Below are positions 585 to 33,577 of a DNA stretch of 64,000 bases, piece by piece. How positions within the stretch are numbered: position 1 is the stretch's first letter; each line of letters begins with the position of its first letter. Made by a program: the position numbers and the translations under genes. The notes beneath the pieces were generated by a model. It was given only the letters and a program-made list of their open reading frames with translations, had not been told where the DNA came from and searched no databases. The stretch comes from a bacterium (lineage in GTDB: Bacteria; Patescibacteriota; Patescibacteriia; JAACEG01; JAGUWE01), in NCBI GenBank assembly GCA_043798995.1, contig JAZDOD010000010.1:845-64844 (forward strand). The letters run 5' to 3'.

Positions 585-711
585 GTCATTGCGACAGCCT
601 GTCCAGAAACTGCCGAATCATACTCTACTGTCATTCCTGCGAAAGCAGGAATCCAGAAAAATAAGATAAATTTCAGATATTCTGGATTCCGCATCAAGTG
701 CGGAATGACAG
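585..711. repeat. MITE-like hairpin element, GTCAT...ATGAC family (copy E1)
   Basis: Termini are 'gtcattgcgacagcc' and 'ggaatgacag'. Internal palindromes are 'gtcattcctgcgaaagcaggaatccaga' and 'tctggattccgcatcaagtgcggaatgac'. It is related to the copies at 36113, 36668 and 49962. The ORF-track ATG at 705 lies inside this repeat. Confidence 0.7.
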
Positions 712-812
712 TTTATAGACAGGCTGGCGGCAATCTCACGGGAAGCTGCAGGCTGACCCGTGTTCGCTGGTCACTAATGCTCCCGCTGAGAATTTTGAAT
801 TTGGTTAAGCTT

Positions 813-3800
813 ATGTTTTCTAAAAATACAGACAAAAAATTTTATAAAAAGAAAATATATTTGCTAACTTTTGGTTTTTTAATTGGTTTTGGTTTTTTTC
901 TTTTGGCTAAGACGGCACTAGCTCAATTCGGCCTGGAATACGCCACGGCTTCTGGCTTGGGTACGCGCGGACTTAAACAAACTGTTTTTACCGTCATTAA
1001 TGTTCTCTTGGGTTTCTTGGGCATTGTGGCCCTCGTTATTGTGATGTATGGCGGTTTTGTTTGGATGACAGCCGGCGGCAATCAGGAAAAGGTTTCGCGA
1101 GCCAAGAAAATTTTATTAAATGGCTTAATTGGCCTGCTTTTAATTTTAACTTCTTGGGGGATTGCCAATTTTGTTTTGGGCCAGCTTTGGGGAGCAACCG
1201 GCGGTGGCGGACCAACCCCGGGTTCGCCTTGTGATTGCGTGACAGAACTTGGAATTTGTTCCGGGTGTTTGCGTTGTCAGAATACAGGCGGACCGGGTGT
1301 TTGCACCTGGCAGAATGATGTAACTTGCGACCCGACTTGTTTTGGCTTGCCCGGCGCCAAGACCTTTTACGCTCAAAAATTCCAGCCAACTTCGCCGCCG
1401 GATGCCATTCGCAACGCTGTAGTCAGAATTACCTTTAAAGGAGTAAATACTTCAAGCCAGCCCGGAGCCATTAATTATGGTACGAACTTTTCCGTGATAG
1501 ATGTGACCGGCGGTAATGTTTTAGTCAATCCTGATGCGGCCGGTAGTTATCCTAAGGTGGTTGGCAACCGCTTGGAATTTAAGCCCGACACTAACTGTCC
1601 GCCGCCCAATGCCAGTTATAAATGTTTTAATAGCAATAATGATTATCAAATTGTTATTAGTAATTTACCGCCCAACACCGCCGTGATTTCCAATACGGCC
1701 GGCATTAATATTAATTGTATTTTAGGAGCTGGCTGCCAAGCTAATTTTCGCACCAATGATATTGTTGACACCACGCCGCCGCAGATCAGCGTTTCAACTT
1801 TAAGCCAAATTTGCGCCGGTACAACCAATACGGTTTATGCCAATGGCAAAGATGATTCTGGCATTGCTTATGTTGAATTTTATTACGACGATGGCAGCGG
1901 CGACGCTTTAATTGATACTGATAATGCACCAAACTGTCTTGGTGTACCACCTAATGTTAATTGTTCAGCCCAGGTTAATTGGGATACTTCAGGAGACCCT
2001 GATCTGGTGGCCGGCGGTACCGCCTTTCTCAAAGCCAAAGCTATGGATTTGGATTCCAATGAAGGTAATTCAGCCAATTATAAAGTGACTTTGCGGGCGG
2101 CTCATTGCTGTAACAGCATTCAAGATATGGATGAAGAAGCGATTGATTGCGGCGGAACCGACTGCGCGGCTTGCGCCGGCGCTAATTGCGATATTGATAT
2201 GCCAACCCCGGGCTGCCAACCTGACGATATGGTTTGCGCTTCAATTTTTTGCGATCCAAGTCCTGGCCCGAACGAGTGCAAATGCCAGCAGCCGCCGATT
2301 ATTGACTGGGTCCAGCCGGCCGGTGGTTTTTGCGACGGCTCAATCAATACTCCGTGCAACGATAATGCTGATTGTTCTACTTTTATTCCTAATACATGCA
2401 ATAATACCGATCCTAATGGCCGGCCGGGTAATTTTGTCACCATCGGCGGCAGATTTTTTGGCACGACATCCGGCACGGTTAATTTTAGAGGAGCCGCTGG
2501 CTGGATTATGGCTCTTCCCCCTATTTCAGTTAATCCGGCCTGTCCTCCTGACACTTGGACTGATCACGAGATTGTGGTAGCCGTGCCTAACGGGGTAGTT
2601 AATGGCCCTATTCAAGTTGAAACAGCCGCCGGTTATACTGACCAGACCGCCGATACGCGCGGACCGCTGGTTCCTGATTTTCTTGTTAATACTATTACTC
2701 GTCCCGGGCTTTGCCAGGCCGCGCCAAATAGCGGCCCTTACGCTACCTTAGTTAATTTGACCGGTGTGCGTTTTGGCCCGGCTGCAACTTCTCGGACCAT
2801 AGAATTTGGCAATGAAACGAGTTTTGTGCCCGGAGAAAACATTAACTGGATAAATAACGAAAACGCTAATGTTACCGTGCCTAATCTTCGGCCGGCAGAT
2901 GTCGGGCTTAGGATTAAAACAGATGATATTTACAGCAATTATTTGTCGTTTAGGGTTTTGCCCGGCACGGCCGGTGGGCCGTATATTTCTTATCTTGACC
3001 CTGTTAGCGGGCCGGTCGGACAATACATGACGATTTTTGGCGGTAATTTTGGCAATCAAGTAGGCACGGTTAAGTTTATTGATGGCGGCGCAAATGAAGT
3101 TAACGCCGATGTTAATTTTCCCAGCGAGTGTTTAAATAATTTTTGGCACAATAATTATATTATTGTCAAAGTGCCCAGTGCGGCCGGAGTAAACGACGTA
3201 AAAGTTATCACCCAAGCCGGCAAAGAAAGTAATGTTGTACCATTCACCATAACAGCCGGCACTCCTGGGCCGGGCATTTGCGCTCTGATTCCTGATAACG
3301 GTCCGGTTGGCACAACAGTTGATTTTTTTGGCGATAATTTTGGCGGAGCCCTGGGCCAGATAATTTTTCATAATAGTGTTTCCGCCCCCATTACCTCGTG
3401 GGCTAACCAGTCAATTAAGAGTTCAGTTCCTTTAGGCGCGGTAACCGGCCCGGTTTTTGCCCGCCGTGGCGGTCAGCCGTCAAATCAAGTGCCTTTCCGG
3501 GTCGGAGCTTGTCAGGATTCTTCCCAATGCCAAGCGGGCGAGGAGTGCTGCGAGGACAAGACCTGCAGGATAACTTGTCCGGAAAAAGTGGAAGCAATCT
3601 ACGGCTGGAGCTTTACCACCGGCGATTATTTTGTGGCTCAAAATTGTATTCGGGACATAGAGATTCCCGCGACCGGGCCAAAAGGCGGCAATATTTGCGT
3701 TAATGCCCAAATTGCCGTGCGTTTTACCACTACAGTTAATGATGCTTCTGTGCCACCTAATGTTGTAGTTGAAAGATGTGATAATGATGAATGCACTACG

Positions 3801-6800
3801 GTAAGTCCAGTTGCCGGAAATGTGACTATGGTTACTTTAGCCACCGATCCGGTGACTGAGGGCTTTACTTTTACGCCCAGCATTATAGTTTTATTTGATA
3901 CAAACACAACTTATCGCGTGACGCTCCGGGGCGGACCCGGCGGCATTGAAGACGAAAGCGGCACGCCGCTTATTGATGATTTTTCCTGGACTTTTAAAAC
4001 CAGAAACGACGGCCGCCAATGCGAGATTGATAAAATCAATGTGGCGCCGAATAATTCTAAATTAGTGCTGATGGGCGCTACCCAGGACTACGTGGCTCTT
4101 ATTACGGCCAAAGAAGATCCCTGCCTTTTGATTGATCCCAAGGGCTATACTTGGGCTTGGGAGTCAAGCAAACCCGAAGTTGCTCAAATTTCTGGGTTTA
4201 CTGTCAATACTGCTACAGCTGTGGCTATGGGAGCTGGTTCGACCGATATCATTGCCAAAATTCCTTCAGAAAATAAATCAGGTAAAGCCATCCTCACGGT
4301 TGATCTTTCCGGCCTCCAGGTTTTAAACGCCGTGCCTAAATGCGATACAACCTGCACCAATGCCCAGATTAGGGCGCGCTTTAGCAACTGGGTTGATGAC
4401 AATACTTTGGCCGGCAATCTTTTTATCTATCAGTGCCCGAATAAGGTCTGCGGTTCAGGTTTTACGCCCGTGGCTTTGAACGGCGCCAATCCTTATGATT
4501 ATTTCTGGAATGGTTTGACCGGCGATTCGCTTTTGGACATTAATCAGGCCGCTAATTTTAACCCCAATACTTTTTATCGGGTGATTATCAAAGGCGGCCC
4601 AGCCGGTATTAAAAATTATTTAGGCGGGGGACTTTCTAATCCGAATTATAAATCATCCGCGGGCGAGGAATGCGAACCACCCGGTTTCCCGGGTTGTAGT
4701 GCGAGTTGTTTACACACCAGCGGCGAATGTACGCCTGGCTCTTTAGGTTGTAATGGCGCAGGGCTTCATACCGGTTCAATCGGTTCAAGCTGCGGCAATG
4801 GCGCGGTTGAGCCGGCACGGGGAGAAAATTGCGATCCTAGCGCTCCTGGCTATGGGCCAAGTGGTTGTGATAGTACAACATGTTTACTCAAAGGTAGTAT
4901 TTTTCCAGCTATTTGTGGCGACAGTTCCACGCCGGATAGGGTTCACGGTGAGGCCTGCGATGATAGAAATCAGACAGCCGGCGACGGTTGTTCGCCAAAA
5001 TGTTTGCGCGAAGGCACAGTGGCGCCAATTTGCGGCGATGGAAATATTGATCTTGGCGAGGACTGCGATGATGGAAATATTACTAACGGCGATGGCTGTT
5101 CGGCTAAATGCCTTGCTGAAGGAGCGATCGGCTCGGTTTGCGGCGACAGAAGAGTCGGCCTTGGCGAGGATTGCGACGACGGCAATACTGCGCCAAATGA
5201 CGGCTGTTCAGGCAGTTGTTTAAGCGAAGGCGCAACTGGTTTGGCAGTTTGCGGCAATAATGTAGTTGAAGATGGCAAAATTAATGATAGCTATTCCTGG
5301 GTTTTTGGCGTGGGCAATGCCATTTGTCAGCCCTTGCGAAGCGAAGTGGTACCAGCTAACCTTACCACCATTATAGGCAAAACCATAGATTATTTGGCTA
5401 ATGTTTATAGCTTGGCTGATGAATGCTCGCCCACAGGGCAATTATTGGATGCCGACGATTATCCTTGGGAGTGGACAACTAACAATGCTTTTGTGGCCGA
5501 TTTTGATCCGCCGCTTCCATTACCGCCTCATCCTCCGCGAGAAACGGTCAAAACCCTGAACGTTGGCAATGCCCAGATTTGCGCTTCGGCTGACACAACA
5601 ACGCCTCCGGATGGAACTTATGATCTTCAGGACTGCGCTGATATTGTGGTGCAAAATCCGGGCCCTCGGCGTTGCCAGCAATCGGGCAATGCTTGCTGTG
5701 CCAATGGCGTATCAAGTTGCGAGCCGGCTTATAAATGTCTGGAAAATCAGAGCTTGCCAGCTTGCCCTTGGTCGCCCGGCTTTTTTCAGGATTGCCTTTG
5801 TTGTTGCGATCCAACGGATGATAAGTGTCCGGCCCCGCTTTCCTGCTACGCTGACAAAGCTCCTTGCGCGGGCGCTAACCGCGGACTTTGCTGCGGCTGT
5901 AAGCAAGACAGCGAATGCCCTGACCCGATAGGTGAGGGCTGCGGCAGTGACAAGTGTTGCCATAGCCGTCCGGCCGTTGCAGCTACTCTGCCGGCGAATA
6001 ATGATGCCAATATCTGTCGCAATCTTAAAATCAGAGTTGACTTTGATCCGCTTGAGCCAATGCAGACCTCAAGTTTTGTTGGTAAAGTAGAAATGATAAA
6101 AATGAGCGACAGCAGTGCAGTTAAAGGGATGACTTCTTCAGCCGGTAACACTATTTTATATTTTAGTCCACAAAGTATTTTAGAACCACAAACCCAATAT
6201 CGCGTTACGATTAAAAAGGAGGTCTTAAGCATTTATAAAGTAGCAATGGCGGCTGATTATATTTTTTCCTTTACTACAGGCGATATCATCTGTGAGGCCG
6301 ATTATTTAAAAGTTTCAATCCAGCATGATGCCGATCTTTTTGTCACAACTAATAAAGATCTTTTCACTTGCGCCAAGACCAGCGGTTGTATCGATGATAC
6401 CAATACAACCATCTTGCCTCCTGATATACCTGACAATCAGCACCTTTATTTAGCCGAAGCCATGGATATGACCGGCGTGGTTTTAACCGGCTATGATTAT
6501 AATTGGCAGACCACTGACCCCGATGATATTGTTAATCCTAATACTTGGGCTTTAAATTCAATTACCGTTACGGCTAATAATAAAAAAGGCCGGACGACCT
6601 ATAATGTTAAGGCTACGCCACAACTCACTTCTGGCAATACCGCCGCTGTTTCTAACTATGTTTATGTGACTAACTTTATTTGCGAGAATCCTTGGCCGGC
6701 GGTTAATAATTGGCCTTGGATTGATGATTCGGTTTTAAATCCAAATTCAATTTGCAATACCCCCGGTTGCTTTAACGTTAATACTCAATTCCAAATAATG

Positions 6801-6923
6801 TATTGCCGCGATGCTGGCGGCCCGGGCCCAGCCGATGATCTGCCGGAGTTAAAATGGGATCCGCCGCTCATTCCCGGCCAAAGCGGAAATCTTCTCAAAG
6901 AATTTTATTTTGTGGTACCGTAG
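813..6923 (+). CDS. Giant (~2,035 aa) secreted/membrane-anchored cysteine-rich surface protein. It has an N-terminal signal peptide plus two hydrophobic helices (VirB2/TrbC-like topology), IPT/TIG-like beta domains, about 5 tandem 'Myxococcus cysteine-rich repeat' units (CGDG..GEDCDDGN..DGCS.KC) and Cys-rich EGF-like modules
   Basis: Long ORF. The likely true start is the ATG at 813 (MFSKNTDKK...), because the upstream ATG at 705 is inside repeat E1. Repeats 'ICGDGNIDLGEDCDDGNITNGDGCSAKCLAEG' recur about 5 times around 4,900-5,270. There is no stop codon for 6.1 kb. Confidence 0.75.
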   Translation: MFSKNTDKKFYKKKIYLLTFGFLIGFGFFLLAKTALAQFGLEYATASGLGTRGLKQTVFTVINVLLGFLGIVALVIVMYGGFVWMTAGGNQEKVSRAKKILLNGLIGLLLILTSWGIANFVLGQLWGATGGGGPTPGSPCDCVTELGICSGCLRCQNTGGPGVCTWQNDVTCDPTCFGLPGAKTFYAQKFQPTSPPDAIRNAVVRITFKGVNTSSQPGAINYGTNFSVIDVTGGNVLVNPDAAGSYPKVVGNRLEFKPDTNCPPPNASYKCFNSNNDYQIVISNLPPNTAVISNTAGININCILGAGCQANFRTNDIVDTTPPQISVSTLSQICAGTTNTVYANGKDDSGIAYVEFYYDDGSGDALIDTDNAPNCLGVPPNVNCSAQVNWDTSGDPDLVAGGTAFLKAKAMDLDSNEGNSANYKVTLRAAHCCNSIQDMDEEAIDCGGTDCAACAGANCDIDMPTPGCQPDDMVCASIFCDPSPGPNECKCQQPPIIDWVQPAGGFCDGSINTPCNDNADCSTFIPNTCNNTDPNGRPGNFVTIGGRFFGTTSGTVNFRGAAGWIMALPPISVNPACPPDTWTDHEIVVAVPNGVVNGPIQVETAAGYTDQTADTRGPLVPDFLVNTITRPGLCQAAPNSGPYATLVNLTGVRFGPAATSRTIEFGNETSFVPGENINWINNENANVTVPNLRPADVGLRIKTDDIYSNYLSFRVLPGTAGGPYISYLDPVSGPVGQYMTIFGGNFGNQVGTVKFIDGGANEVNADVNFPSECLNNFWHNNYIIVKVPSAAGVNDVKVITQAGKESNVVPFTITAGTPGPGICALIPDNGPVGTTVDFFGDNFGGALGQIIFHNSVSAPITSWANQSIKSSVPLGAVTGPVFARRGGQPSNQVPFRVGACQDSSQCQAGEECCEDKTCRITCPEKVEAIYGWSFTTGDYFVAQNCIRDIEIPATGPKGGNICVNAQIAVRFTTTVNDASVPPNVVVERCDNDECTTVSPVAGNVTMVTLATDPVTEGFTFTPSIIVLFDTNTTYRVTLRGGPGGIEDESGTPLIDDFSWTFKTRNDGRQCEIDKINVAPNNSKLVLMGATQDYVALITAKEDPCLLIDPKGYTWAWESSKPEVAQISGFTVNTATAVAMGAGSTDIIAKIPSENKSGKAILTVDLSGLQVLNAVPKCDTTCTNAQIRARFSNWVDDNTLAGNLFIYQCPNKVCGSGFTPVALNGANPYDYFWNGLTGDSLLDINQAANFNPNTFYRVIIKGGPAGIKNYLGGGLSNPNYKSSAGEECEPPGFPGCSASCLHTSGECTPGSLGCNGAGLHTGSIGSSCGNGAVEPARGENCDPSAPGYGPSGCDSTTCLLKGSIFPAICGDSSTPDRVHGEACDDRNQTAGDGCSPKCLREGTVAPICGDGNIDLGEDCDDGNITNGDGCSAKCLAEGAIGSVCGDRRVGLGEDCDDGNTAPNDGCSGSCLSEGATGLAVCGNNVVEDGKINDSYSWVFGVGNAICQPLRSEVVPANLTTIIGKTIDYLANVYSLADECSPTGQLLDADDYPWEWTTNNAFVADFDPPLPLPPHPPRETVKTLNVGNAQICASADTTTPPDGTYDLQDCADIVVQNPGPRRCQQSGNACCANGVSSCEPAYKCLENQSLPACPWSPGFFQDCLCCCDPTDDKCPAPLSCYADKAPCAGANRGLCCGCKQDSECPDPIGEGCGSDKCCHSRPAVAATLPANNDANICRNLKIRVDFDPLEPMQTSSFVGKVEMIKMSDSSAVKGMTSSAGNTILYFSPQSILEPQTQYRVTIKKEVLSIYKVAMAADYIFSFTTGDIICEADYLKVSIQHDADLFVTTNKDLFTCAKTSGCIDDTNTTILPPDIPDNQHLYLAEAMDMTGVVLTGYDYNWQTTDPDDIVNPNTWALNSITVTANNKKGRTTYNVKATPQLTSGNTAAVSNYVYVTNFICENPWPAVNNWPWIDDSVLNPNSICNTPGCFNVNTQFQIMYCRDAGGPGPADDLPELKWDPPLIPGQSGNLLKEFYFVVP

Positions 6924-6972: not shown

Positions 6973-7260
6973 ATGAAAGAGAACTTTTATGTTTACATTG
7001 CCACCAATAAACGAAATACCGTTTTTTATACTGGGATAACCAGTGATTTGGCAAAAAGAATGTGGCAACATAAACAGAAAGAGGTCAAAGGTTTTACTAG
7101 TAAATATAACATTAACAAATTAGTCTATTACGAGATATTTTCCAATCCCCAAGAGGCAATAGCAGCTGAAAAGAAAATCAAAGGTTGGACAAGAAAAAAG
7201 AAGATTGATTTAATCAAAGAGATTAATCCTGAATTTAAAGATTTGTCAGAAGAACTATAA
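6973..7260 (+). CDS. GIY-YIG nuclease family protein (UPF0213-like, 95 aa)
   Basis: 'FYVYIATNKRNTVFYTGITSDLAKRMWQHK...GFTSKYNINKLVYYE' matches the GIY-YIG catalytic module. The gene is bracketed by repeat elements on both sides. Confidence 0.8.
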   Translation: MKENFYVYIATNKRNTVFYTGITSDLAKRMWQHKQKEVKGFTSKYNINKLVYYEIFSNPQEAIAAEKKIKGWTRKKKIDLIKEINPEFKDLSEEL

Positions 7261-7510: not shown

Positions 7511-9763
7511 TTGGCCCTATTGGGCAAAAGTAAATTTATCCATTCTATGTTAGTAAGACAAAAAACCAAACGAAAAAAATTAATGCGCAAAAATCGTTCA
7601 CAACTATTATTAGTTGTTAGTTGTATGTTGTTAGCATTATTGGTTGGTTTTGGTTTTTACTATCTTAACCTTAATTTTAAAAATTTTATCTTCTCAGCCC
7701 CCGCCCAGGCCCAAACCGAAAGCGCCCTGGCCATTCGCGTCTTCAAAAATCCCGACCACCTCTCGCCCGAACAATGGTACAAGGAAAATGTGCCTCACCC
7801 AAGCAATCCGCAGTCAACCGTGATTGATGGCTATCAAGCCATCCGCGATGGCCGCAGCATTTATGTCTCGGCCGCCAACTTAAACACCGTTGACAACCAG
7901 CTTCACTCCAACATTTATTTAATTTCCTACAGCGAAGGCGCTTCTACTGCCGCCCAAAAGATTTTTGAGGGAGTTTTGGCTAATTGGCAGTTTAACAGCA
8001 ATATACCGCCTAATAATGCAGGCAAAGTTTGCTCCAATGATTACACCACGGTCTGCAGCCAGGATAAGGATTGTCCCACAGGCGAAACTTGCTTAAACAT
8101 TGAGCCCAAACCCCGCCTCACCCGCGACGTGAAGCGACTGGCTGATCTCCAAGATATCCGCCAAGAACTGGAAGATTACAATTATCAAGCCGGCTCTTTT
8201 CCGACTTTAAGCTCCGGCACTTACATTCCCAAACTTTCTTTTTCCGTCTGGCCCAGCTGGGAAAAAACTTTGGGGCAAAACTTGGGTTCAACCTTACCCG
8301 CTGATCCAATTAACCGATTGATGGGCTGTACTAATCCGTATGACCCAACCACTTGTTGGGATAACAAATCTTTAGCTTTTCAGTGCCCCGGCAACTATTA
8401 CATTTATGCCTACCGATCGCCAACTCTTTCCGGCGACCAAGCCAAACTTTACACCAAATTAGAATACCGCGATCAAACCTGGGCCTCAACTTTAGATATT
8501 TTAACTAACCCCCAAGAATTATTAGATAATATATTAGCTAAGTGTCTGCTTAATTTTGGCCAAAATACCAATGATTATGATAATGATACTGTGCCTAACG
8601 GCGATGATAATTGTCCGACCATTCCTAATACGACCCAAACTGATTCAGAAGTTCCAATAAAAGACGGTATTGGCGATGCCTGCGACGCCTGCCCCAATGA
8701 CGCGCAAAACGACCAGGACAACGACGGTTATTGCCTCGGGCTGGCCAGTTTAGTTTTTGGCGACAAAAAAAGCAATGACAATTGCCCCACTATTTACAAT
8801 CCCAGCCAGCAGGAAAATCCAGCTATCCCAGGCACGGGTTTGGCTTGCTCGCGCTGTCAGGACGCTGATAGTGACAGCTATTGCTCTTATGCGACCGGCG
8901 GCGATGATTGTGATGACACAAAGGCTGATATTCACCCAGGCGCGCCAGAATTTTTCAATGGCCTTGATGATAACTGCGACGGCCGGATTGACGAATGCGA
9001 AAAAACAGTCGGCTTTAATGTTACCACGTCATTCGGCACGACTCAAGTAGCCCAGGCTTTTAGCTTGGACAAAGACGTCGAAGATCTTTACTCTTATGCC
9101 AGCGCCTCTGCTTATATATTTGAGTTTGATTATAATAAAGATGGCTGGGCTGATTGGTATCAAAGTCAAGCGAGCAATATTTTTATTTATCATAGCCGGA
9201 TCAGCAATCGTCTTTATTTAGGAATAATTCATAATATGGAACAGGGGGGCACTGGCACTGCTGATCTTGGCTTTTCAGGCCTGCCAGCTGACGCCACCTT
9301 TGTGATTAAGGATGACCCCAACCACGCCCCCGATACTTATAGCTTAACTCAAATTACACATGGCTGGAGCAAAAATAGCGACGGCGCCATAATTGACTTG
9401 GGGCCAGCCAGCCGGCCTTGGACAATCACTATTACCAACAATGGTTTTGGTGGCGTCGGTCCCGACCCGATTAATAAGTGGCGCCTGGCTTATCCGCGCT
9501 TCAACGGCATTAACTATATTGGTTTAGATATGGCCGCCGCCTCCTGGGTCAGGTTAGAATACGGCGGCAGCTTGAACCAGTCCATTCCCTGTTATAATGG
9601 CCCAGCGGGGACCGAAGATGTCGGGATTTGCCATGGAGGGTTTGCCACCTGTCAACTAACCGGGCTTTTAGGGACGTGCGTGGGTGAGGTTGTGCCCCAG
9701 ATAGAAAAATGCGGCAATGGCATTGATGAAGATTGCAATGGCTCTGATCTTGTTTGTGCATAA
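7511..9763 (+). CDS. Secreted cysteine-rich protein with thrombospondin-type-3-like Ca-binding repeats (DNDTVPNGDDNCP.., DQDNDGYC) and MopE-like 'putative metal-binding' CxxC...DDCDD..PGA.E.CDG.D motifs
   Basis: N-terminal hydrophobic segment after a basic stretch (start may be the internal Met at 7547 or 7583). The TSP3-like aspartate-rich repeats and the terminal 'CGNGIDEDCNGSD' are read directly from the translation. Confidence 0.6.
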   Translation: MALLGKSKFIHSMLVRQKTKRKKLMRKNRSQLLLVVSCMLLALLVGFGFYYLNLNFKNFIFSAPAQAQTESALAIRVFKNPDHLSPEQWYKENVPHPSNPQSTVIDGYQAIRDGRSIYVSAANLNTVDNQLHSNIYLISYSEGASTAAQKIFEGVLANWQFNSNIPPNNAGKVCSNDYTTVCSQDKDCPTGETCLNIEPKPRLTRDVKRLADLQDIRQELEDYNYQAGSFPTLSSGTYIPKLSFSVWPSWEKTLGQNLGSTLPADPINRLMGCTNPYDPTTCWDNKSLAFQCPGNYYIYAYRSPTLSGDQAKLYTKLEYRDQTWASTLDILTNPQELLDNILAKCLLNFGQNTNDYDNDTVPNGDDNCPTIPNTTQTDSEVPIKDGIGDACDACPNDAQNDQDNDGYCLGLASLVFGDKKSNDNCPTIYNPSQQENPAIPGTGLACSRCQDADSDSYCSYATGGDDCDDTKADIHPGAPEFFNGLDDNCDGRIDECEKTVGFNVTTSFGTTQVAQAFSLDKDVEDLYSYASASAYIFEFDYNKDGWADWYQSQASNIFIYHSRISNRLYLGIIHNMEQGGTGTADLGFSGLPADATFVIKDDPNHAPDTYSLTQITHGWSKNSDGAIIDLGPASRPWTITITNNGFGGVGPDPINKWRLAYPRFNGINYIGLDMAAASWVRLEYGGSLNQSIPCYNGPAGTEDVGICHGGFATCQLTGLLGTCVGEVVPQIEKCGNGIDEDCNGSDLVCA

Positions 9764-9854
9764 GTTCACATTCAGTGTTTTAATTTTTAGTTACTTTGAG
9801 GTATAATAATAAAAAGATGTTTTTAAAAACTTTAAGCCTTATAGTAGATTTACT

Positions 9855-10700
9855 ATGATTGATTTAAAAAAGAAAATTAAATTACTAAAAGAATATTTTT
9901 TTCGGCGGTCAGAGGTTTTGATGGCGTTTGTTTTTGGCTCTCAGGCAAAAAAGAAGGCTGGTAAAATTTCTGATTGGGATATTGCCATTTATTTTCAACC
10001 GTGCTCAAAAGAGATAGAGTGGGAAAGCAACCGCCGTTATCCTCAAGAAGAAAAAATTTGGCTTGATTTAGTTGAACTGCTGGAAACTGATCAAGTTGAT
10101 TTAGTTGTTCTCAACCGAGCTTCAGCCAGCGTGGCAGCTTCAGCTCTTCAAGGCCTACCTTTAATAATCAAAGACCGTCAGCTTTTTCTTGAATTTATGT
10201 TAATTGTTAGTCGGGAAGCCGAAGATTATCGCCAAACTGCCAAAGAATACGCCGAGATTTACTGGCGCTCCTCTTCACTAAGTGAAGAAGATAAATACAT
10301 CCTTAATCGACGAGTTATTTTTCTTGATTCAGAATTAAAAGATGCAGCTAAATTCCGCGAGCTTAATCAGTTAGAATATGAAAAAGATAGCACCAAAAGA
10401 AGGGAAGTGGAGCGTTGGATTGAAAACTTGATCAATGCGGCCATTGATATTACAAAAATTATTTTAGCCAGCCAGAAGCGACCGATTCCCTCGACTTACA
10501 AAGAAGTTCTTCGAGCACTTGAAATTTTACCCAATTGTCCAAAAAATTTAGGAGAACAACTGGCTGTTTGGGCGGAACTGCGTAATATTCTGGCTCACGA
10601 GTATTTAGACATTCGCTGGCGGCGGATTGAAGATTTTATTAAAAAAAGCGAATCTTATTTTCAAAATTTAATCAAAATGGTCAAAGAAAATTTTCTTTAA
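9855..10700 (+). CDS. Single-chain fusion of a MntA-like nucleotidyltransferase (N-terminal) and a HepT/DUF86-like HEPN RNase domain (C-terminal); toxin-antitoxin-like
   Basis: N-terminal 'FVFGSQAKKKAGKISDWDIAIYF' matches the Pol-beta NTase G[SG]x(9-13)DxD motif. C-terminal 'LRNILAHEY' matches the HEPN/HepT Rx4HxY motif. 281 aa is about MntA plus HepT. The gene has its own TATAAT upstream at about 9811. Confidence 0.6.
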   Translation: MIDLKKKIKLLKEYFFRRSEVLMAFVFGSQAKKKAGKISDWDIAIYFQPCSKEIEWESNRRYPQEEKIWLDLVELLETDQVDLVVLNRASASVAASALQGLPLIIKDRQLFLEFMLIVSREAEDYRQTAKEYAEIYWRSSSLSEEDKYILNRRVIFLDSELKDAAKFRELNQLEYEKDSTKRREVERWIENLINAAIDITKIILASQKRPIPSTYKEVLRALEILPNCPKNLGEQLAVWAELRNILAHEYLDIRWRRIEDFIKKSESYFQNLIKMVKENFL

Positions 10701-10721: not shown

Positions 10722-12131
10722 ATGCCTGCAGATGATATTAATCTTTTACCCCCAGACCTAAGGGGCAAAGAAGAAAAAATTAGGAAGAGGGCGCCTCGGA
10801 AAGTTTGGGAAATAAGAATGACCTCACCGCAACCCAAGCAATCGAAATTAAAAGAGGCATCGAAAACTTCGTGGTGGGAGGAAATGAAAAAGTTTTTAAC
10901 TCAACCCTTAGGCAAGAAAGCCCGACCAATGCCCTTAGGCAGTATGGCACCTCTTAAAATGCCAGTTTTTGAATATGAGAAGAAAGTTTTGGCTAAGCCG
11001 GCAGAAAAGCCAAAACTAATTGAAATAAAAACTTTGCCGTCGAAGGCAGAGCCGGCCAAAAAAGTATCATTTTGGTCCAGGGTTTTTAAAACCAAGAAGC
11101 ACGAACTAAAAATAGAAGCAAGGATGATTTCAACCAGGGATCTTCCTTCGCAAAAAAAAGAAATTTCGCCGTCAGTCAAAAAGGAAGCTGTCAAAGAAAT
11201 TGCCGCTTGGTCTAAGGTAACTGAACCGGAAAAAATTCAGCTCAAGCCAGCCCCCAAAATGTCATTTTGGTCGAAAATTTTCAAGAAAAAAGAAAGAAAA
11301 ATCACGCCATCGGTTCCATCGCCCCAAAAACCAGCCAAAGTTTCCTTTTTTGAAAAAATATTTGGGCCAAAAATCAAACCGGCTCGCAAGGAAACCCCTT
11401 TAGCGCCAGTACTTCATAAAAAAACATCTTTTTTTCAAAAGTTTTTTTCAGCCAAAGAAGAGCCGACTAAACCGGCCAAATCCTTTAAAACGCCGCCGCT
11501 GTCAGCTGGGGGAAAGAAAAAAGAAAAAGCGCCTCTTAAACCCAAGAAATTCAAAAGCCCGTCAATTTCTTTTATTCCCGAAAACGAGGTTTCGGCTAAG
11601 CTTAAGTTTTTTAAGAAAATATTCCTGGGCGAAATTGTTGTTCTTCTTTTTTGTTTTTTACTTGGCTTTAGTTATTTAATACTTCTTTGGTATCATGCCA
11701 ATTTAATGACTAAATCAAGCAATTTGGAAATAAAAATCAGCGAGTTAAAAGAAAAAATTGCGCGCAATCAAAAAGAGGAGGAGATGATGCTTATAGATCA
11801 GAAACGAATTAAAGCCGCTCAAGTGCTTTTGGATCAGCATATATATTGGTCTAACTTATTTGATTTGCTTGGAAGATACACCGTTGATGATGTTTATTAT
11901 AAAGATTTTGCTGTCAGTGATTTTGAAAAGATAACTTTGCAGGCCGTAGGCGCTGATTTCAGATCAATGGCCCGCCAACTTTTAGTTTTCAGCCAGGCTA
12001 AAGATTATATTAAGGATGTTAAAATCAGCAGCGGGAGTTACTCAATCACGGGAGTTAGTTTTACAATTAATTTGACAGTTGACAAAGCTTTATTTTACAA
12101 ACTTAGCTACGATAACAACAGCCTAAAATAA
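10722..12131 (+). CDS. pilN: PilN-like type IV pilus assembly protein with an expanded lysine-rich repetitive cytoplasmic linker
   Basis: N-terminal 'DDINLLPPDLRG' resembles the PilN INLLP signature. A single TM 'IVVLLFCFLLGFSYLILLW' follows about 300 aa of K/P-rich sequence that contains 5 copies of a K-x-SF(W/F)-x-K-I/F-F-K motif. A periplasmic ~150 aa domain follows. It is positioned immediately upstream of the pilO-like gene and pilB. Confidence 0.55.
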   Translation: MPADDINLLPPDLRGKEEKIRKRAPRKVWEIRMTSPQPKQSKLKEASKTSWWEEMKKFLTQPLGKKARPMPLGSMAPLKMPVFEYEKKVLAKPAEKPKLIEIKTLPSKAEPAKKVSFWSRVFKTKKHELKIEARMISTRDLPSQKKEISPSVKKEAVKEIAAWSKVTEPEKIQLKPAPKMSFWSKIFKKKERKITPSVPSPQKPAKVSFFEKIFGPKIKPARKETPLAPVLHKKTSFFQKFFSAKEEPTKPAKSFKTPPLSAGGKKKEKAPLKPKKFKSPSISFIPENEVSAKLKFFKKIFLGEIVVLLFCFLLGFSYLILLWYHANLMTKSSNLEIKISELKEKIARNQKEEEMMLIDQKRIKAAQVLLDQHIYWSNLFDLLGRYTVDDVYYKDFAVSDFEKITLQAVGADFRSMARQLLVFSQAKDYIKDVKISSGSYSITGVSFTINLTVDKALFYKLSYDNNSLK

Positions 12132-16994: not shown

Positions 16995-17381
16995 ATGAAA
17001 ATAAAAAATTTTGAGGATCTGAATATTTGGAAGTTAAGCTTAAAAATAACCAAGGAGATTTATGACTTAACTTCTAAAAGCGGTTTTTCTCATGACTTTG
17101 CTTTGAGAGATCAGATAAGAAGAGCCATTATTTCTGTTAGTTCTAATATCACGGAAGGATTTGAAAAAAATAACAACAATGAATTCATTCGTTATCTTAA
17201 AATCTCAAAAGGATCAACTGGCGAGGTTAGAAATCAACTTTATATCGCCTTGGCGGTAAATTATATTACTCAACAAGAATTTGAAAAGGTTAATCAAGAA
17301 TTAATATCTTTAGCCAATCAGATCGGGAAGTTTATTAGTTATTTAGAAATAAGAAGAAAATTAACCCGCCAAACCCGTTAA
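16995..17381 (+). CDS. Four-helix-bundle protein (23S rRNA intervening-sequence protein family, TIGR02436-like), copy 1
   Basis: 'DQIRRAIISVSSNITEGFEKNNNNEFIRYLKISKGSTGEVRNQLYIA'. The gene is flanked by inverted repeats at 16972-16994 and 17363-17389. Confidence 0.75.
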   Translation: MKIKNFEDLNIWKLSLKITKEIYDLTSKSGFSHDFALRDQIRRAIISVSSNITEGFEKNNNNEFIRYLKISKGSTGEVRNQLYIALAVNYITQQEFEKVNQELISLANQIGKFISYLEIRRKLTRQTR

Positions 17382-18376: not shown

Positions 18377-18739
18377 ATGAGACGTTACTATAAATCTCAT
18401 TTAAGAAATATTTCCAGAAAACTTAGAAGTAATATGACCGAAGCAGAAATAAAACTCTGGAATAGAATTAGAAAAAAACAAATTAACAATTTTCAATTTT
18501 ATAGACAAAAACCGTTAGGTAAATACGTGGCGGATTTCTATTGCCCGGTTAAGGAGTTGGTCATTGAAATAGACGGAGGACAACGTTACGACGAAGCCGG
18601 AGAAATCACAAGGGAAGATAAAGAAAAAGAAAATTATCTTAAAAATATTTTAAAATTAAAAGTAATAAGATTCACTAATATTGAGATAACGAAGAATTTA
18701 GACGGTGTGGTAAATAGTTTAATAGAAGAATTAAAGTAA
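18377..18739 (+). CDS. DUF559 endonuclease-domain protein (Vsr-like fold)
   Basis: 'EAEIKLWNRIRKKQINNFQFYRQKPLGKYVADFYCPVKELVIEIDGGQRY...LKVIRFTNIEI' matches the DUF559 signature (W..LR, FrRQ, DFyc, LvIEiDG, lRf.N). Confidence 0.8.
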   Translation: MRRYYKSHLRNISRKLRSNMTEAEIKLWNRIRKKQINNFQFYRQKPLGKYVADFYCPVKELVIEIDGGQRYDEAGEITREDKEKENYLKNILKLKVIRFTNIEITKNLDGVVNSLIEELK

Positions 18740-20285: not shown

Positions 20286-20672
20286 ATGTCAAAACTCAAA
20301 ACTCAAAACCACAACTTAAATCTTAAAACTAACGTTAAATACCGTACCTACTATTTTTCTTTAGATGTAATTAAACTTGTTGCTACCCTGCCAAATGAAA
20401 GGATATATTGGATTATTAGTGATCAATTATTGAGATCCGCTACTTCTATTGGAGCTAATATTGTTGAAGCTAAGTCAGCGAGCTCCCGAAGAGATTTTAT
20501 TAAATTTTATGAAATTGCTTTAAAATCTGCTAATGAAACTAAATACTGGTTTTGTCTTCTAAGAGATGGAACCAAAGTTGACAAACAAGGGATAAACAAA
20601 CTTTTAAATGAAGCAGAGGAAATATCAAGAATGATAGGATCAAGTTTACTTACACTTAAAAATAAAAGATAA
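20286..20672 (+). CDS. Four-helix-bundle protein (IVS-protein family), copy 2
   Basis: 'SIGANIVEAKSASSRRDFIKFYEIALKSANETKYWFCLL'. Inverted repeats built from 'tcaaaactcaaaac' words lie at 20283-20312 and 20697-20724. Confidence 0.7.
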   Translation: MSKLKTQNHNLNLKTNVKYRTYYFSLDVIKLVATLPNERIYWIISDQLLRSATSIGANIVEAKSASSRRDFIKFYEIALKSANETKYWFCLLRDGTKVDKQGINKLLNEAEEISRMIGSSLLTLKNKR

Positions 20673-23093: not shown

Positions 23094-26000
23094 ATGTCAA
23101 CAAGTAAAAATAAAAACACTTTTTGCTTTTCCCTACTAAAATTTAACCGAATTGTTAAGCCCTTATTAATGACTGGTATTTTTTTATTTTTTCTTTTTCT
23201 AAATTTTTTGCCCTGGCCGGCTAAAGCGGTAGAGATTAGTAATTTTAATCTTTCTCCCGGATGCGATAATAAGACTGATAATCCCGTCAACTGTGTGCCT
23301 GGTCAGATAGTAATAGAAGCGAGATGGGCAGCCCTAGATAATGCACTTTGCCCGACCGTGTCGGAAAATAAATGTTACTATAGAATTTTAAGAAAAGAAA
23401 GCTCGCCCACAGGGAGTTTTGTGACTTTAGTTAGCAACTTAACTTATATAAGCGGTGCTTCGGCAGTTTGGCGAGATACCGGCGGCGGATCTTATCCCCT
23501 GAAAGAAAGAACCAACTACACTTATAAAATAGAAGCTCGTGACGCCAGTGGCGGAACAATTTATGGCACCAGCGGCGAGAAAGAGACAATGAGCAAGGTT
23601 TGCGGCTGCCCGCACCCGTTTGTTTTATATGGAGCCAGTAATGATTGTGACGGCAATATTTCTCAAATCGGATTAAGTTGGCAAGAAACTGCCATTGAAG
23701 TGAGAGACGGGCGTGGGACTTCCATTTTAGCGCCTCACTACGGAATTTATCGTTGGAATGGTCCTTGCAGCAGCTCAAGTTGTTATGACCCTTCTAATGC
23801 AGTCGGATTTATTGATCGAGCCATTGCCTGTCAGGCTGGTAAATGTTTTTTTGTTGACGGCAATAATTCTGCCAAACGGCTCGAATTCAATAAAAGTTAT
23901 TATTATAAAGTAGTAGCTTATAGTGAGGGCGCGGAGAGAGCTTCTGCCAATCAATTAACACCAATAGCTGCTTTTTGTCCTAAACCCGTAATTCCCTCTA
24001 ATAGTGCCACGCCGCCCGGCTTAGAGCTTGACTGTAATCCCCTACAATTGAAATTAAGATGGGATGATTGCGCTGGCGCAACTAATCCTGCGGCCTGTCA
24101 GCAAAGTCGGCTTAACGTCCCTATCTTTTATAATATTTATAAAAATACCAATGAGAATGGCTATATTTGGATTAATTCACTGGCTGCCAATTCTTCCCAA
24201 TCTCCTTGCCAGTGGCAGAGCAACAAATTTAGTTGTCAATTTAGTGACAGCATTAAAAGTAATTTTAGCTATAGTTATTATGTTAAGGCAGCTGGCCAGG
24301 GCTGGACTTTAGACAGCAATTATAGCGAACTACTGACAATAATACCAGGCGCCTGCGCCGTTCAGATTAATCCGCCTGATTATCTATGGGTTACGCCTTT
24401 TTGCGATTCGCTTGATAATAATAAACCCAAGATGACTTTAAGCTGGGGTTACACTGCCACTCCGCCGGCTAATATCAGACGCTATTATATTCATAAATAT
24501 CGTTGCACTAATCCCCCAACTTGTAGCAGCTGGCAAGCCATTACCAAAGACGGGAATACAACTTATTACGATAGTTATAACACTACAGCCGAAGATGTGA
24601 TTTGGGTTGACGGTTCTCAAAGTTATCATACAGTGATTGCCGGTGAAACTTATCGTTATCAAGTGAAAACCGAAACTACCGACGGAGTCAGTAATCCTAC
24701 CCCCCCCAGCACTTCGGTCAAAGCTCGTGAAGATTGCGTTTCGCCGCCTCATACAGCTACTCCGGTTTTAACCTTGGGAGCTAGTTGTTCTAATTTAGCC
24801 CCGGTTATGATCTTAAATTGGACGCCGCCCAAAACCGACGGCAATGGCGACGGCAATAGCGACGGCACTACCGACGATATTTTTGTTTATCATATTTTAA
24901 AAAACGGCGTACTTTATACTGATACCGCCAATTCTGATTCTTATATAGACACATTCAACGTTAGCCCTGGCCAGCCGTATTATTATCAAATTATTGCCGA
25001 TGGGCCAGGCGGCCCAGCGGCTTCCAATCTTACCCCAACGGTAGTTAGCCGAGACGATTGCAATAAACCCACGCCTTTTAAATTAATCACCGTGGCTAAA
25101 AGTTGTCTTCCGCCGAGTCAGCATCAAGTTTATTTGGATTGGCAAAACTCATCTAATCTTAGCCGTTACGAAGTTTTTAGAAAAGCGACCAATAGCCCCC
25201 CTGATTGTACTACCAGCGAAGGGCGACTTTCGGCCGGCCTAATTACCAATCTTAATGTCACTAACTTTACTGATACTGAAAACTTAGTCGAAGGCGCGAC
25301 TTATTATTATTTTATCAGGGCTTCGGTTGACGGCGGCAGCTGTACTTTAGCCACCCTAGCCAGCGGCGTGAGCAATGCCGTGACCATTCCTTATACCACC
25401 CCAGGCCAGCCGAGCGGTCTTGCCGCTACGCCCCAGTGCTTAAATAGCTGGCAAAGCAGTATCCGCCTTACTTGGACAGTTGATCCCGCCGTAGCCAGTT
25501 ATAAGCTCTGTTACAATACTTCGCCGGCGGTGACCGAAGCTAATTGCACCCAGTCCTTACTTTCTACTGGTTCTTATGATTTCACCAATAATGTTACAGT
25601 TGGTCAGAATTATTATTTTGCCATTCAGGCCGATAGCGGTTGTGCCAAAAGTTTGTCAGCCGTGGTGGGGCCAACAACGGCTCGTTGTTGCCCGCCACCA
25701 AGTTTTTCCATAAACGGCACGGCAACCTGCCAATCAACGGCCGCGGCCCAACATACCCTTTCTTGGACTACTCATTCCTCGGCTGAAAGCTATGAGGTTT
25801 TTCAATCAGCCAATAATCTTGACTTTTCTTCTTTAGGTTTGCGGGTTTCACCTTTTAATACCTTAGTTGGCCCAAATAACACCTTTTACTATTTTGTCCG
25901 AGCCAAAGCTACTTGTGGATTAGAATATACTAATTCTAATACTTCTCAACTGGCGATTAATTGTCTTCAGTCCGCCAGTCCAACCTTAACCTTGAGCAGC

Positions 26001-29000
26001 ACCAGTTGTATTGGTGGCTATCCGGCTATTGCCTTTAGCTGGAGCCAATCAGCCAATGCCACTTCTTATAGCATTTATCGCTGCCAAGGAACTAGTTGCC
26101 CGCCCAACACAGAGATTAAAAGCGGTTATAATGGGACAAGCTATAATGACATAGGTGGCGAAGGTCAAGCACCCATAAGCGGCAATCTTTACAGTTATCA
26201 GATTAAAGCCATCAATGCCAATAGTAATAGTTTTAATCTTTCTAATTCTATCCAAAATATTTCAGCGCCTTATTGTCCGCCCGGTCCTTTTATTTTATCT
26301 TCCGCAACTAATTGCGATCCAGTGGCGAATAGGCCGATTTTTAAACTTAAATGGACCAAGGCGGCTGAACCAGCGACTTTGGATAAATATAAAATTTATC
26401 GGGTGACGGGCTTTATTTCCGGCCGAGGGCCAAGCGATCCAGTGGTAGCAGAAAAAGCCGGCACTTTTTTTGACCAATGGTGGACTGATGATACATTTCC
26501 GCCCGGCGAACCAATCAATGACCAAAATTATTCTTATTATGTTGAAGCCGTAGCCAAAAATAATGCCGGTTCTTCCTATTCTAATATTGTCAATTTGAAA
26601 AAGGACTGCCAAGGCCCGACCGGGACTTTGGCTTTAACCGCTAATGCCTCTTGTGATGCCAATGACGATCCTTATGTTGATTTGGACTGGACAATGAGCA
26701 ATTTGACTGATGTGGCCTCTTACAAGCTTTATCGGGGGGGCCAATTAATTTATACCGACGCCACTATTTCGGCCGTGGAAACTTATCCCGATTCCAATAT
26801 CGAAAGCGGTTCTTCTTATAATTATGCGGTGAGGGCGTGCGACCAAAATAATTTATGTACCAGCGATTCGGTCGTCAATAATGTTTCAGCGCCTTATTGC
26901 CCGGTCGGTATTCCGGCTGATTTGCAAGTCGGTGCTATTTGCCAAGAAGTAGATTTGCCCGCGGTTAATTTAAGCTGGCAGCCGGCCAAAAACGCCACCC
27001 AGTACACCGTTGTCAGAAAGATAGGAGGGGTCATTAATAAAACTTACTCGGTTACCGCTACTTCTAAATCAGATAATGAGGTGGTGGGCGGGACAACTTA
27101 TACTTATCAAATCATTGCCAAAAATCCAGCTAATTTGTGTGCTACCAATGATTGTGCCGTTTGTGCTGGCCAATGTTCAACTGTCCAAACCGCCTCGGTG
27201 CCTACTTGCGGGGTTAGTGAGCCGGTTCTTTTTGCTGACAGATATTGTAGCGGAGAAGGAGTGCCGGCTGATTTAAAGTGTTTTAGTCAGGGTGATCAGT
27301 ACGGCACTTATGCTCATTTTTGTTGGACAGCTGACGAATCAGCGGGAGCGCCGCTTTGGTGCCGCCTAGAAAGACAAACTCCTGAAGGCTGGTGGCTGGT
27401 TAAAACCCCGACTTTTCATAGCCAGGGGATATACGATTCTGGTTCTTCTACCGTTGATAATATTGCTACAACTCAAAGGAATAATATTACTAATCGAGCT
27501 TATTCAGCGCTTAGCTTTTATGATTTTTATGAGTCAGTCGTGCTGGGTCGGAGTGGCGTCAGTATGGTTCCTTCGCGCATCCAGCTTCTAGCCGGCATTT
27601 ATCCGGTCGGACCTTATCCTGAAGCTTCCCGGAATGTGACTTTGGACTTTTGGTTTAAAATTGGTCCTTACTCTTGTCTTACTAATAGAGATGATTTATT
27701 TTATTCGTTCCTTTGGAAACATAGCGGCGATCAAACTCAACCAGATTTTAGAATATCTTATAATGCTATTAACAACGGTGGTTATCAAGATGACTTAGTG
27801 ATGCTGAAAACAGATGAACTCGTGATCGTTGCTCCTGAGTCAGAAAGAGCAACTTTAATTAATTATCCAGAGCCAGGAGGCGGTTTAACTTGCGATACTT
27901 GGCATCATTTTCTTTGGACCCAAGACCAGACCTCGGGTCAGACCCAGGTTTATCTTGATAAAACTTTAGCTTACAATGGTCTTTGGGGTAGAAATTTTAC
28001 GAGAAATAATAACTTATATTTTGGTTGCGAATCTTTTTTTATGCCTGGCACAGCTAGTTATTTCCGCGTGCCGGAAACAATTTTTGACGAAATTAAAATC
28101 TGGCCGGACAAGATTATAAATAGCCGCCAAGTCCAAAAACTTTATGATCAAGATTACACCAAGCTAACAACATGGCCGGTTTTAAAAAATGTAATAGCTG
28201 TAACAACCTCCGCCGGCGGTTATCACACCTGCGCCCTTCTTGAAGACAAGACAGTTAAGTGTTGGGGGGAAAATGGCTTTGGCCAGCTCGGCCTTGGTAA
28301 TACTAATAGTCCCCAACTTAACCCAGTTTCAGTTCCTAATTTATCTAATGTCAAAGCCGTCGCCGTCGGCTTTTTTCACACCTGCGCCCTTCTTGAAGAC
28401 AAGACAGTTAAGTGTTGGGGGGAAAATTACTATGGCCAAGTCGGTGATGGTACTACTGTTACTCTCGCATTGAGCCCAGTTTTTGTTCATGATGTTAGTG
28501 TTAGTGGTGTTGTTTGGGCTGATTACCACACTTCTTACGATGATTTTGAGACAATTGAAGGCGGGCAATATAATTATCAGGTGACTTGCGGCTACACTGG
28601 CGGAGCAACCAGAACCACACCGGGTAACTTTGCTTTTCCCTGGTGTCAGCCAGACATTGATTTTCCCCAGACCAATGATTTACAAGGCATTTGTTCTGAT
28701 TGGGCCGATAAAAATAAAAATATAGTTGCTGATCAAACAGCTGATTGTTCCGGCGGTTATTCTGATGATACCGAAGAAATTGCGGAATCCAAGTATCAAC
28801 CTCAAGCTCCCTACGCACTGCTGGCTTGGGATTATTTAGGTGGGGCTGAAACTGTTGAAGTTAAAAGATATCAAGAAGGACAATCTGAAACCGAGGCAAT
28901 TACTTTAGCCAGTTTCTCGGTTGATCCGACTGATCCTAATAAGGCGAGCAGTGATATTCAGTGTCCTGAGGGTCATTGTTACTGCCAAGACCGCAGCGTC

Positions 29001-33460: not shown

Positions 33461-33577
33461 AATTTTTAATTTTTAATTTTTAATTTTCAATTAAACCGGT
33501 ACTTTGAAATGGCCGGTTTTTGTGATACAATAACAACAAATCCAAAATCCAAAACTCTAAATACTAAACAAATTCTA

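Follow-up and report, generated by a model that had tools for sequence, protein, structure and literature searches.

A single-chain MntA-HepT protein from a patescibacterial type IV pilus cluster belongs to a large fused subfamily distantly related to FhepTA

Pairs of genes encoding a minimal nucleotidyltransferase (MNT) and a HEPN protein were predicted to be a toxin-antitoxin (TA) system by Makarova et al. (2009), who also raised antibiotic nucleotidylation as a possible role of such modules, and the DUF86/PF01934 HEPN family was recorded as "occasionally fused to MNT" in Table 1 of the survey by Anantharaman et al. (2013). The canonical type VII HepT/MntA systems, SO_3166/SO_3165 of Shewanella oneidensis (PDB 5YEP/6M6U/7BXO) and HEPN/MNT of Aphanizomenon flos-aquae (PDB 7AE2-7AE9), are encoded by two genes, and in these canonical systems MntA and the HepT that it modifies are different chains of a hetero-oligomer (Yao et al., Nucleic Acids Res., March 2026, PMC13000451). 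Here we examine a gene that carries both domains in one chain, located in a 64,000-nucleotide stretch of a Patescibacteriota genome (GenBank assembly GCA_043798995.1, contig JAZDOD010000010.1, positions 845 to 64,844 of the forward strand), which we refer to throughout as the window and whose first letter is position 1 in all coordinates of the gene and its surroundings.

The closest described system is the fused protein FhepTA of S. oneidensis (SO_1440; 276 residues), which is encoded in prophage CP4So and was characterised by Yao et al. (PMC13000451). Full-length FhepTA is non-toxic but its HEPN domain alone is toxic, and the MNT domain, via D41 and D43, modifies Y240 in the Rx4HxY motif with three AMPs. 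When complementary mutants were co-expressed or mixed in vitro, no modification in trans was seen, indicating an intramolecular reaction, and the linker SAQNHFIIL is essential for this self-modification. The same study showed that the MNT domain blocks dimerisation of HEPN and that two cysteines unique to the protein, C163 and C270, form a redox switch (PMC13000451).

In place of the two adjacent genes of a canonical TA pair, the window has one uninterrupted open reading frame (ORF), with the following features.

9855..10700, forward strand: fused MntA-HepT ORF with an ATG start, encoding 281 residues plus a stop codon (ORF list and sequence).
9885..10235, forward strand: MntA-type minimal nucleotidyltransferase domain, residues ~11-127 (Pfam, NCBIfam and fold matches).
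9936..9980, forward strand: nucleotidyltransferase (NTase) catalytic motif G28-S29-Q30-x9-D40-W41-D42, equivalent to GS-x10-DWD (read from the sequence).
10098..10100, forward strand: D82, probably the third catalytic carboxylate in a pol-beta-type NTase fold (strand 81-85 of the structural model).
10239..10283, forward strand: inter-domain junction, residues ~129-143, KEYAEIYWRSSSLSE, specific to the fused subfamily.
10323..10679, forward strand: HepT/DUF86 HEPN RNase domain, residues ~157-275 (Pfam, NCBIfam and fold matches).
10581..10604, forward strand: RNase motif R243-N-I-L-A-H248-E249-Y250 (RNILAHEY) with the predicted AMP-acceptor Y250 (sequence, conservation and alignment).

The role given to D82 is inferred from the pol-beta NTase fold in general. 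An earlier note on this DNA, made from the letters alone, had read the gene as a single polypeptide joining an MntA-type NTase to a HepT RNase, and the ORF and both the GS-x10-DWD and RNILAHEY motifs are exactly as it gave them. Using profile hidden Markov models, we found that Pfam Polbeta (PF18765) matched residues 11-107 (E = 4.9e-13; 49.5 bits, cut-off 26.9) and NTP_transf_2 (PF01909) also matched the protein (E = 1.6e-6), while HepT-like (PF01934) matched residues 160-275 (E = 6e-16; 58.7 bits, cut-off 23.5) and the NCBIfam equivalog HepT_toxin (NF047751) matched residues 157-270 with 73.8 bits, compared with a cut-off of 60. Matches of this strength are well outside what chance would give. 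The C-terminal half scores as HEPN/DUF86 and the N-terminal half has the catalytic DxD. With these profiles, the fold matches of each half and the matches of a family profile to PDB sequences (below), we consider it virtually certain that the protein is an MntA-type NTase and a HepT HEPN RNase in one chain, as the note had read it. An NCBI entry that is 100% identical to it is named 'HepT-like ribonuclease domain-containing protein [bacterium]'. No in-frame ATG, GTG or TTG was present from codon 135 to codon 160 when the gene was read, so a separate HEPN product is not expected. The PADLOC defence models returned weak N-terminal matches alone (candidate system PDC-S09, E ~5e-5), which were not used.

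A search of 5.8 billion proteins with the window protein gave 597 matches at a threshold of E <= 0.001, and we looked in detail at the best 120 of these, nearly all of which were ~280 residues long, contained both Pfam domains and were 47-100% identical to the query. Lengths fell between 255 and 320 residues in 116 of the 120, and both domains were found in all but one. Where a source was named among these homologues it was Patescibacteria, Sungbacteria, Omnitrophota or an unclassified "bacterium" metagenome-assembled genome (MAG), and the proteins were annotated merely as "DUF86 domain-containing" or "HepT-like ribonuclease domain-containing". Likewise, when 1.84 billion cluster representatives were scanned with HMMER without an index, 1022 matched at E <= 0.001, 66 of these (50%-identity clusters) at E <= 1e-30, and 45 of the best 150 HMMER matches were full-length fusions. 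The fused ~280-residue architecture is thus present in hundreds of homologues, mostly from Patescibacteria and Omnitrophota and with identity down to ~35%, and the rarity implied by the earlier note was overstated; the architecture was catalogued in 2013 and characterised in 2026, and the window protein is one of many.

Conservation was assessed in an alignment of 103 fused homologues that were 46-70% identical to the window protein. Invariant positions were G28, S29, D40, D42, D82, N87, G100, S141, F156 and Y175, together with E186, E190, Y215, R243, N244, Y250, D252 and F261, while H248 was conserved in at least 90% of the sequences. Both the MntA and the HepT NCBIfam models matched all 103 homologues, with a best MntA E-value of 2e-23. 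Because the catalytic residues and Y250 are invariant or nearly so, this pattern indicates that both predicted active sites and the putative acceptor tyrosine are under purifying selection. The window protein has two cysteines alone, C50 and C228, neither of which is conserved, with position 228 being Phe in 76% of the homologues.

An AlphaFold2 model built with the homologue alignment had a mean predicted local distance difference test (pLDDT) score of 91.3 and a predicted template-modelling (pTM) score of 0.84. It displays an N-terminal alpha/beta domain, a long helix (108-138), a five-residue loop (139-143), a further helix (144-161) and a helical C-terminal domain, and its soft spots are limited to residues 31-40 (the GS...DxD loop) and 241-250 (the Rx4HxY loop). 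This confidence suggests that the model has a defined inter-domain arrangement. When searched against the PDB using Foldseek, the N-terminal half matched MNT antitoxin chains (7ae9_H/G, 7ae2_B and 7bxo_E; target-normalised TM 0.58-0.70) and the C-terminal half matched HEPN toxin chains (5yep_B, 7bxo_G and 7ae8_C; target-normalised TM 0.78-0.84, root-mean-square deviation (rmsd) 2.6-2.8 A). Furthermore, a family profile matched the A. flos-aquae HEPN toxin (7ae9_A; E = 4.5e-9), S. oneidensis HepT (E = 3.2e-8) and MNT antitoxin (E = 2.6e-7) among PDB sequences, and in the profile alignment Y250 falls on Y109 of the A. flos-aquae toxin, a tyrosine that is mutated in the PDB entry 'HEPN(H107A-Y109F)'.

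Profile matches (E = 4.5e-9 to 2.6e-7) and fold matches (target-normalised TM up to 0.84) therefore both show the two domains of the canonical systems to be homologues of those of the window protein, although pairwise sequence similarity to the solved HepT/MntA proteins is very low (E = 0.01-0.26). The canonical systems share their catalytic motifs with the window protein, their acceptor tyrosine aligns with Y250, and the mntA-hepT gene order is colinear with its MNT-HEPN order, but they use two genes whereas here one gene fixes the stoichiometry at 1:1 and adds an extra junction.

The comparison with FhepTA was made using a homologue from Shewanella sp. KJ2020 (L053 in our numbering of loci; 4482-5351, reverse strand) and not the SO_1440 sequence itself. 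We obtained this homologue by back-translating the linker peptide given in the paper and using it to scan a genome collection, in which S. oneidensis MR-1 was not matched; the homologue has 276 residues counted from an internal Met, and its numbering fits that of the paper (G29-S30-Q31, D41, D43, C186 and C213). Residues 18-280 of the window protein aligned end-to-end with residues 19-268 of the homologue with 26% identity (E = 3e-12), and Q30, D40, D42 and Y250 aligned with positions 31, 41, 43 and 240, respectively. FhepTA and the window protein are both single chains of near-equal size (276 and 281 residues) with an N-terminal MNT and a C-terminal DUF86-type HEPN domain, have the GSQ-x9-DxD and Rx4HxY motifs in register, and are each encoded by a stand-alone gene that lacks a partner gene but has close two-gene relatives. 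They differ in host, with FhepTA found in Gammaproteobacteria and the window subfamily in Patescibacteria/Omnitrophota-type MAGs, and in location, with the FhepTA gene in a prophage or island and the window gene, which has no integrase close to it, in a pilus cluster of the chromosome.

The Shewanella sp. KJ2020 homologue also has features of its own. Position 240, the AMP-acceptor site of SO_1440, is His in place of Tyr (RNALVHDH); its cysteines are C186 and C213 alone, with the C163/C270 redox pair absent; and its gene adjoins a 411-residue gene that looks like a P4-type integrase.

Single-half matches of 100-220 residues, with 34-62% identity, sit below the fused matches in the HMMER list. 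We looked up two of these split relatives (L068 and L069) and both were genuine overlapping two-gene mntA-hepT operons, the former encoding a 135-residue MntA and a 150-residue HepT with an ATGA overlap, and the latter a 142-residue MntA and a 149-residue HepT from overlapping genes. Identity to the window protein was 51% and 44% for the MntA halves of L068 and L069, respectively, and 41% and 43% for the HepT halves. These operons hold the nearest relatives of each half and show the same motifs as the window protein, but are separate genes that lack the ~129-141 junction, whereas the window protein is a single chain that contains it. The split MntA proteins stop shortly past positions aligned to ~128-133 of the window protein and the split HepT proteins begin at ~142-143, while the fused family has an extra joining segment (~129-141; consensus EYAxIYWRSxSLSxED), in and around which S141 is invariant and R138, S139, L142 and D146 are at least 90% conserved in the 103 fused homologues. 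In plasmids, tblastn detected nothing beyond more distant colinear NTase|DUF86 gene pairs, with 25-33% identity, carried by haloarchaeal, cyanobacterial and Thermus plasmids.

Fused and split forms interleave in a neighbour-joining tree of the HEPN halves, and the branch of FhepTA is long and lies apart from the window subfamily, to which split forms also belong; this tree is rough and star-like with no bootstrap support, and it bears on the separation from FhepTA alone and not on counts of fusion or fission. As the split relatives (41-51% identity) are much closer to the window protein than FhepTA is (26%), fusion in the window lineage is, judging from the sequences, most simply explained as independent of the Shewanella fusion.

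We propose that the window gene is probably a single-chain type VII TA module, in which the MNT half would AMPylate Y250 of its own HEPN half and hinder dimerisation, keeping the RNase off. The earlier note had suggested an intramolecular self-modifying toxin or a regulated RNase, and this is the mechanism shown experimentally for FhepTA (PMC13000451); for the window protein we infer cis AMPylation, RNase activity, toxicity and trigger from the analogy with FhepTA and the canonical HepT/MntA systems. The N-terminal domain would draw on ATP and add AMP units to Y250 in its own chain, beside the Rx4H RNase motif, and the AMPylated tyrosine, with steric interference in HEPN dimerisation, would keep the RNase silent. 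Loss of the modification or of the MNT half would then lead to RNA cleavage and growth arrest, with ATP depletion, proteolysis of the MNT half, AMP removal or phage attack as possible triggers. The gene itself would be a stand-alone mobile addiction or defence gene that has landed in a type IV pilus cluster, and would not behave as a pilus component.

We compared ten independent contexts of fused homologues and found no neighbour conserved across them, while other TA modules were frequent. One homologue (L001) lies in a TA island with Uma2, DUF2283, HicB-like, MNT+HEPN, two PIN and AbiEii genes, and another (L072) in a TA island with ParE/Phd and a divergent MntA/HepT pair, with a pseudopilin nearby. 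L003 has a separate MntA/HepT pair immediately downstream, followed by PilC and pilins; L005 has CinA and RecA as well as an MNT+HEPN pair; L006 has a giant protein, 23S-IVP, PilZ and an orphan NTase; L070 has an FtsA/PilM-like gene upstream; L074-76 have multihaem cytochromes; and L007 and L008 have housekeeping genes. As the contexts are variable, with no conserved neighbour and frequent other TA modules, they fit a stand-alone, horizontally mobile module, and the description of the gene as isolated cargo in the earlier note is supported. In both L001 and L006, the fused homologue has 23S_rRNA_IVP genes no more than ~4 kb away.

In five of the ten contexts a second MNT/HEPN module or orphan NTase adjoins the fused gene or lies within ~2.3 kb of it, at the following positions of each locus.

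L001, 11107-11806: second MNT/HEPN module or NTase.
L003, 8931-9602: second MNT/HEPN module or NTase.
L005, 7872-8496: second MNT/HEPN module or NTase.
L006, 6544-6867: second MNT/HEPN module or NTase.
L072, 1623-2451: second MNT/HEPN module or NTase.

These extra modules could reflect TA clustering or cross-talk. The adjacent pair in L003 was considered as a recent split or duplicate of the fused gene and this was rejected, their kinship being distant. When shared synteny was looked for, the proteins flanking the L003 homologue were not homologous to those flanking the window gene.

The window is a chromosomal stretch with housekeeping genes (LigA, GatA, TsaD, a sigma factor and glycosyltransferases), and the pilus setting that the earlier note had described is real, with PilM, PilO-like, PilB, PilC and PilD genes and several pilins. 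The fused gene lies within this co-directional type IV pilus cluster, which runs PilM (C-terminal part), a giant 2072-residue protein, a GIY-YIG gene, a 750-residue TSP3/MopE protein, the fusion, a 469-residue protein, a PilO-like gene, a 123-residue ORF, PilB, a response regulator, PilC, 23S_rRNA_IVP, a pilin, DUF559, PilD, a 217-residue ORF, a second 23S_rRNA_IVP and two more pilins. Gaps of 91 nt and 21 nt separate the fused gene from its upstream and downstream neighbours, respectively, both on the same strand. One promoter-like element was located upstream.

9802-9807, forward strand: TATAAT hexamer, a possible but weakly evidenced -10 box, 48 nt upstream of the ATG.

The note had credited the gene with its own TATAAT, and while the hexamer is present, a promoter of its own is not supported, as TATAAT is common in the window (90 occurrences compared with ~65 expected) and a consensus scan upstream of the gene detected no paired -35/-10 sigma-70-like site; the scan also found no terminator. 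With the short same-strand gaps, no terminator, and a common hexamer with no -35, transcription along with the pilus genes is no less likely than transcription from an own promoter. No Rfam match was found around the fused gene, and no second MNT or HEPN gene was seen within ~10 kb of it in the window.

Several observations weigh against a mobile, FhepTA-like single-chain TA module. The match of the NCBIfam equivalog MntA_antitoxin (NF047752; residues 18-127) was a narrow pass at 61.5 bits compared with a cut-off of 60. The linker of FhepTA is short and hydrophobic (SAQNHFIIL), whereas the window junction KEYAEIYWRSSSLSE is ~8 residues longer and serine-rich with its own conserved motif (YWRSxSLSxED), and given how unlike the essential FhepTA linker it appears, the geometry and cis mechanism may not transfer. 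Likewise, the FhepTA redox cysteines C163/C270 and the C186/C213 pair conserved in the Shewanella group are both absent from the window protein. There is no recognisable mobile element, with no anomaly in GC content at the fused gene (0.36-0.40, compared with 0.31-0.49 nearby) and no insertion footprint, as the flanks hold short AT-rich chance repeats alone and no integrase is nearby; nor did tblastn detect a homologue in 50,697 phage records. Finally, genes of type IV pilus (T4P) or type II secretion system (T2SS) type occur within ~7 kb of the fused gene in about half of the ten contexts, which is a raw count without a background rate. These are in L003, L008, L070, L072 and L006 and include PilC, pilins, a T2SSE ATPase, an FtsA/PilM-like protein, a T2SSG pseudopilin and PilZ, with no shared synteny.

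The same observations bear on other explanations. The MNT of one chain might AMPylate the HEPN tyrosine of another chain in a dimer or oligomer, or of a nearby HepT encoded by its own gene, as in the canonical 2:2 or 2:6 HepT/MntA complexes. Canonical MntA does work on a separate chain in hetero-oligomers (PMC13000451; PDB complexes), the window junction differs from the linker that FhepTA needs for cis modification, and additional MNT/HEPN genes lie within ~2.3 kb in the five loci listed above. However, the complementary FhepTA mutants gave no trans modification (PMC13000451), no candidate partner gene was seen within ~10 kb of the fused gene in the window, the L003 pair is distantly related to the fused protein, and the high pTM suggests that the model is a packed single-chain unit; on balance we consider neutralisation in trans unlikely. 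The order of an N-terminal pol-beta NTase and a C-terminal HEPN-like helical domain is also that of KNTase/ANT(4'), LinB and AAD(9), with whole-chain Foldseek matches of E ~5e-4 to 3e-2, which brings in a two-domain NTase of the KNTase/ANT(4')/LinB/AadA type whose C-terminal domain only binds substrate, whose target is a small molecule or other macromolecule, and which is not a toxin; the antibiotic nucleotidylation raised by Makarova et al. (2009) for MNT-HEPN modules is in keeping with this. Whole-chain superposition on ANT(4')/KNTase, LinB, AAD(9) and Hailong HalB was nevertheless poor (TM 0.19-0.29, rmsd 15-17 A, 9-14% identity), and no conserved Rx4-6H motif was recorded for the Aminoglycoside_NT_C family by Anantharaman et al. 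(2013), whereas R243, H248 and Y250 are conserved throughout the window family. Both halves also score as type VII TA equivalogs and the closest relatives are two-gene MntA/HepT operons, making this alternative decidedly improbable.

A dedicated role in the type IV pilus, for instance as an RNase that tunes pilin mRNA levels and not as a selfish module, would account for the position of the gene in a co-directional pilus cluster with the next gene 21 nt downstream and no terminator, and for the T4P/T2SS-type genes within 7 kb of the fused gene in the window, L003, L008, L070 and L072 and the PilZ-domain gene near the L006 homologue. Neither gene order nor immediate neighbour is conserved, though, and the L003 flanks share no homology with the window flanks; pilus genes are missing altogether from four contexts and several contexts are TA islands, while the window cluster also holds stand-alone GIY-YIG, DUF559 and two 23S_rRNA_IVP genes, which fits an insertion hot spot. 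We regard a pilus role as very improbable. As the close relatives are overlapping two-gene operons, a single-base change could also fuse the frames, and the ORF could be two adjacent genes that a frameshift from sequencing or assembly, or a lost stop codon, has run together in this MAG. This was rejected and has a negligible chance of being correct, since architecture and junction are conserved in more than 100 independent homologues: the listed homologues carry the fusion down to 47% identity and come from many independent samples and assemblers, a further 45 cluster representatives are full-length fusions, and the junction is conserved with S141 invariant, which is unexpected under random frame fusion.

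Taking the gene as a single-chain TA module, its architecture is already known, catalogued in 2013 and dissected in 2026, and the window protein is a distant member of this class within a large subfamily that is annotated but unstudied. Two real differences from FhepTA are left, a distinct conserved junction and a missing redox switch. A fused MNT-HEPN protein fixes toxin and antitoxin at 1:1 in one chain, and experiments on how such a protein is switched on began in 2026, with one narrow Shewanella group. The fused subfamily of candidate-phyla-radiation-type bacteria and Omnitrophota, which is far larger and highly divergent, is a useful natural comparison for separating general from lineage-specific features of FhepTA; self-AMPylation and the block of dimerisation may be general, while the linker sequence and redox switch may not. 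The picture of what HepT/MntA modules are stays unchanged.

A bolder extension, which we hold to be a long shot, is that the subfamily arose apart from FhepTA, that the WRSxSLSxED junction is a regulatory or sensing element, and that the recurrence near pilus loci reflects a real link. If so, the junction would be a site of cleavage, phosphorylation or phage-protein binding that releases the HEPN RNase, giving a one-gene abortive-infection sensor comparable to CapRel, and the pilus link, in place of an insertion hot spot, would reflect guarding against pilus-dependent phages or policing of DNA uptake by ultra-small bacteria.

Other genes of the cluster and its surroundings have features of their own. 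The 750-residue protein directly upstream of the fusion (7511-9763) has thrombospondin type-3 repeats and a MopE-type metal-binding motif. Directly downstream, the 469-residue protein (10722-12131) has no Pfam match and is at the position expected for PilN; its N-terminal half is lysine-/proline-rich and repeat-like ('KVSFWSRVFK', 'KMSFWSKIFKK'), and it has a hydrophobic segment near residues 300-325. The 2072-residue ORF (705-6923), between pilM and the rest of the cluster, has an N-terminal T4SS_pilin-like segment, Big_5 Ig-like domains and DUF4215, and a second giant ORF of 3046 residues is located at 23094-32234. Finally, six small genes (6973-7260, 16995-17381, 18377-18739, 20286-20672, 32281-32646 and 33509-33946), all co-directional with the operon genes, comprise one GIY-YIG nuclease-domain gene, four 23S_rRNA_IVP (four-helix-bundle) genes and one DUF559 (Vsr-like) gene, which are of a kind typical of selfish or defence-type cargo.

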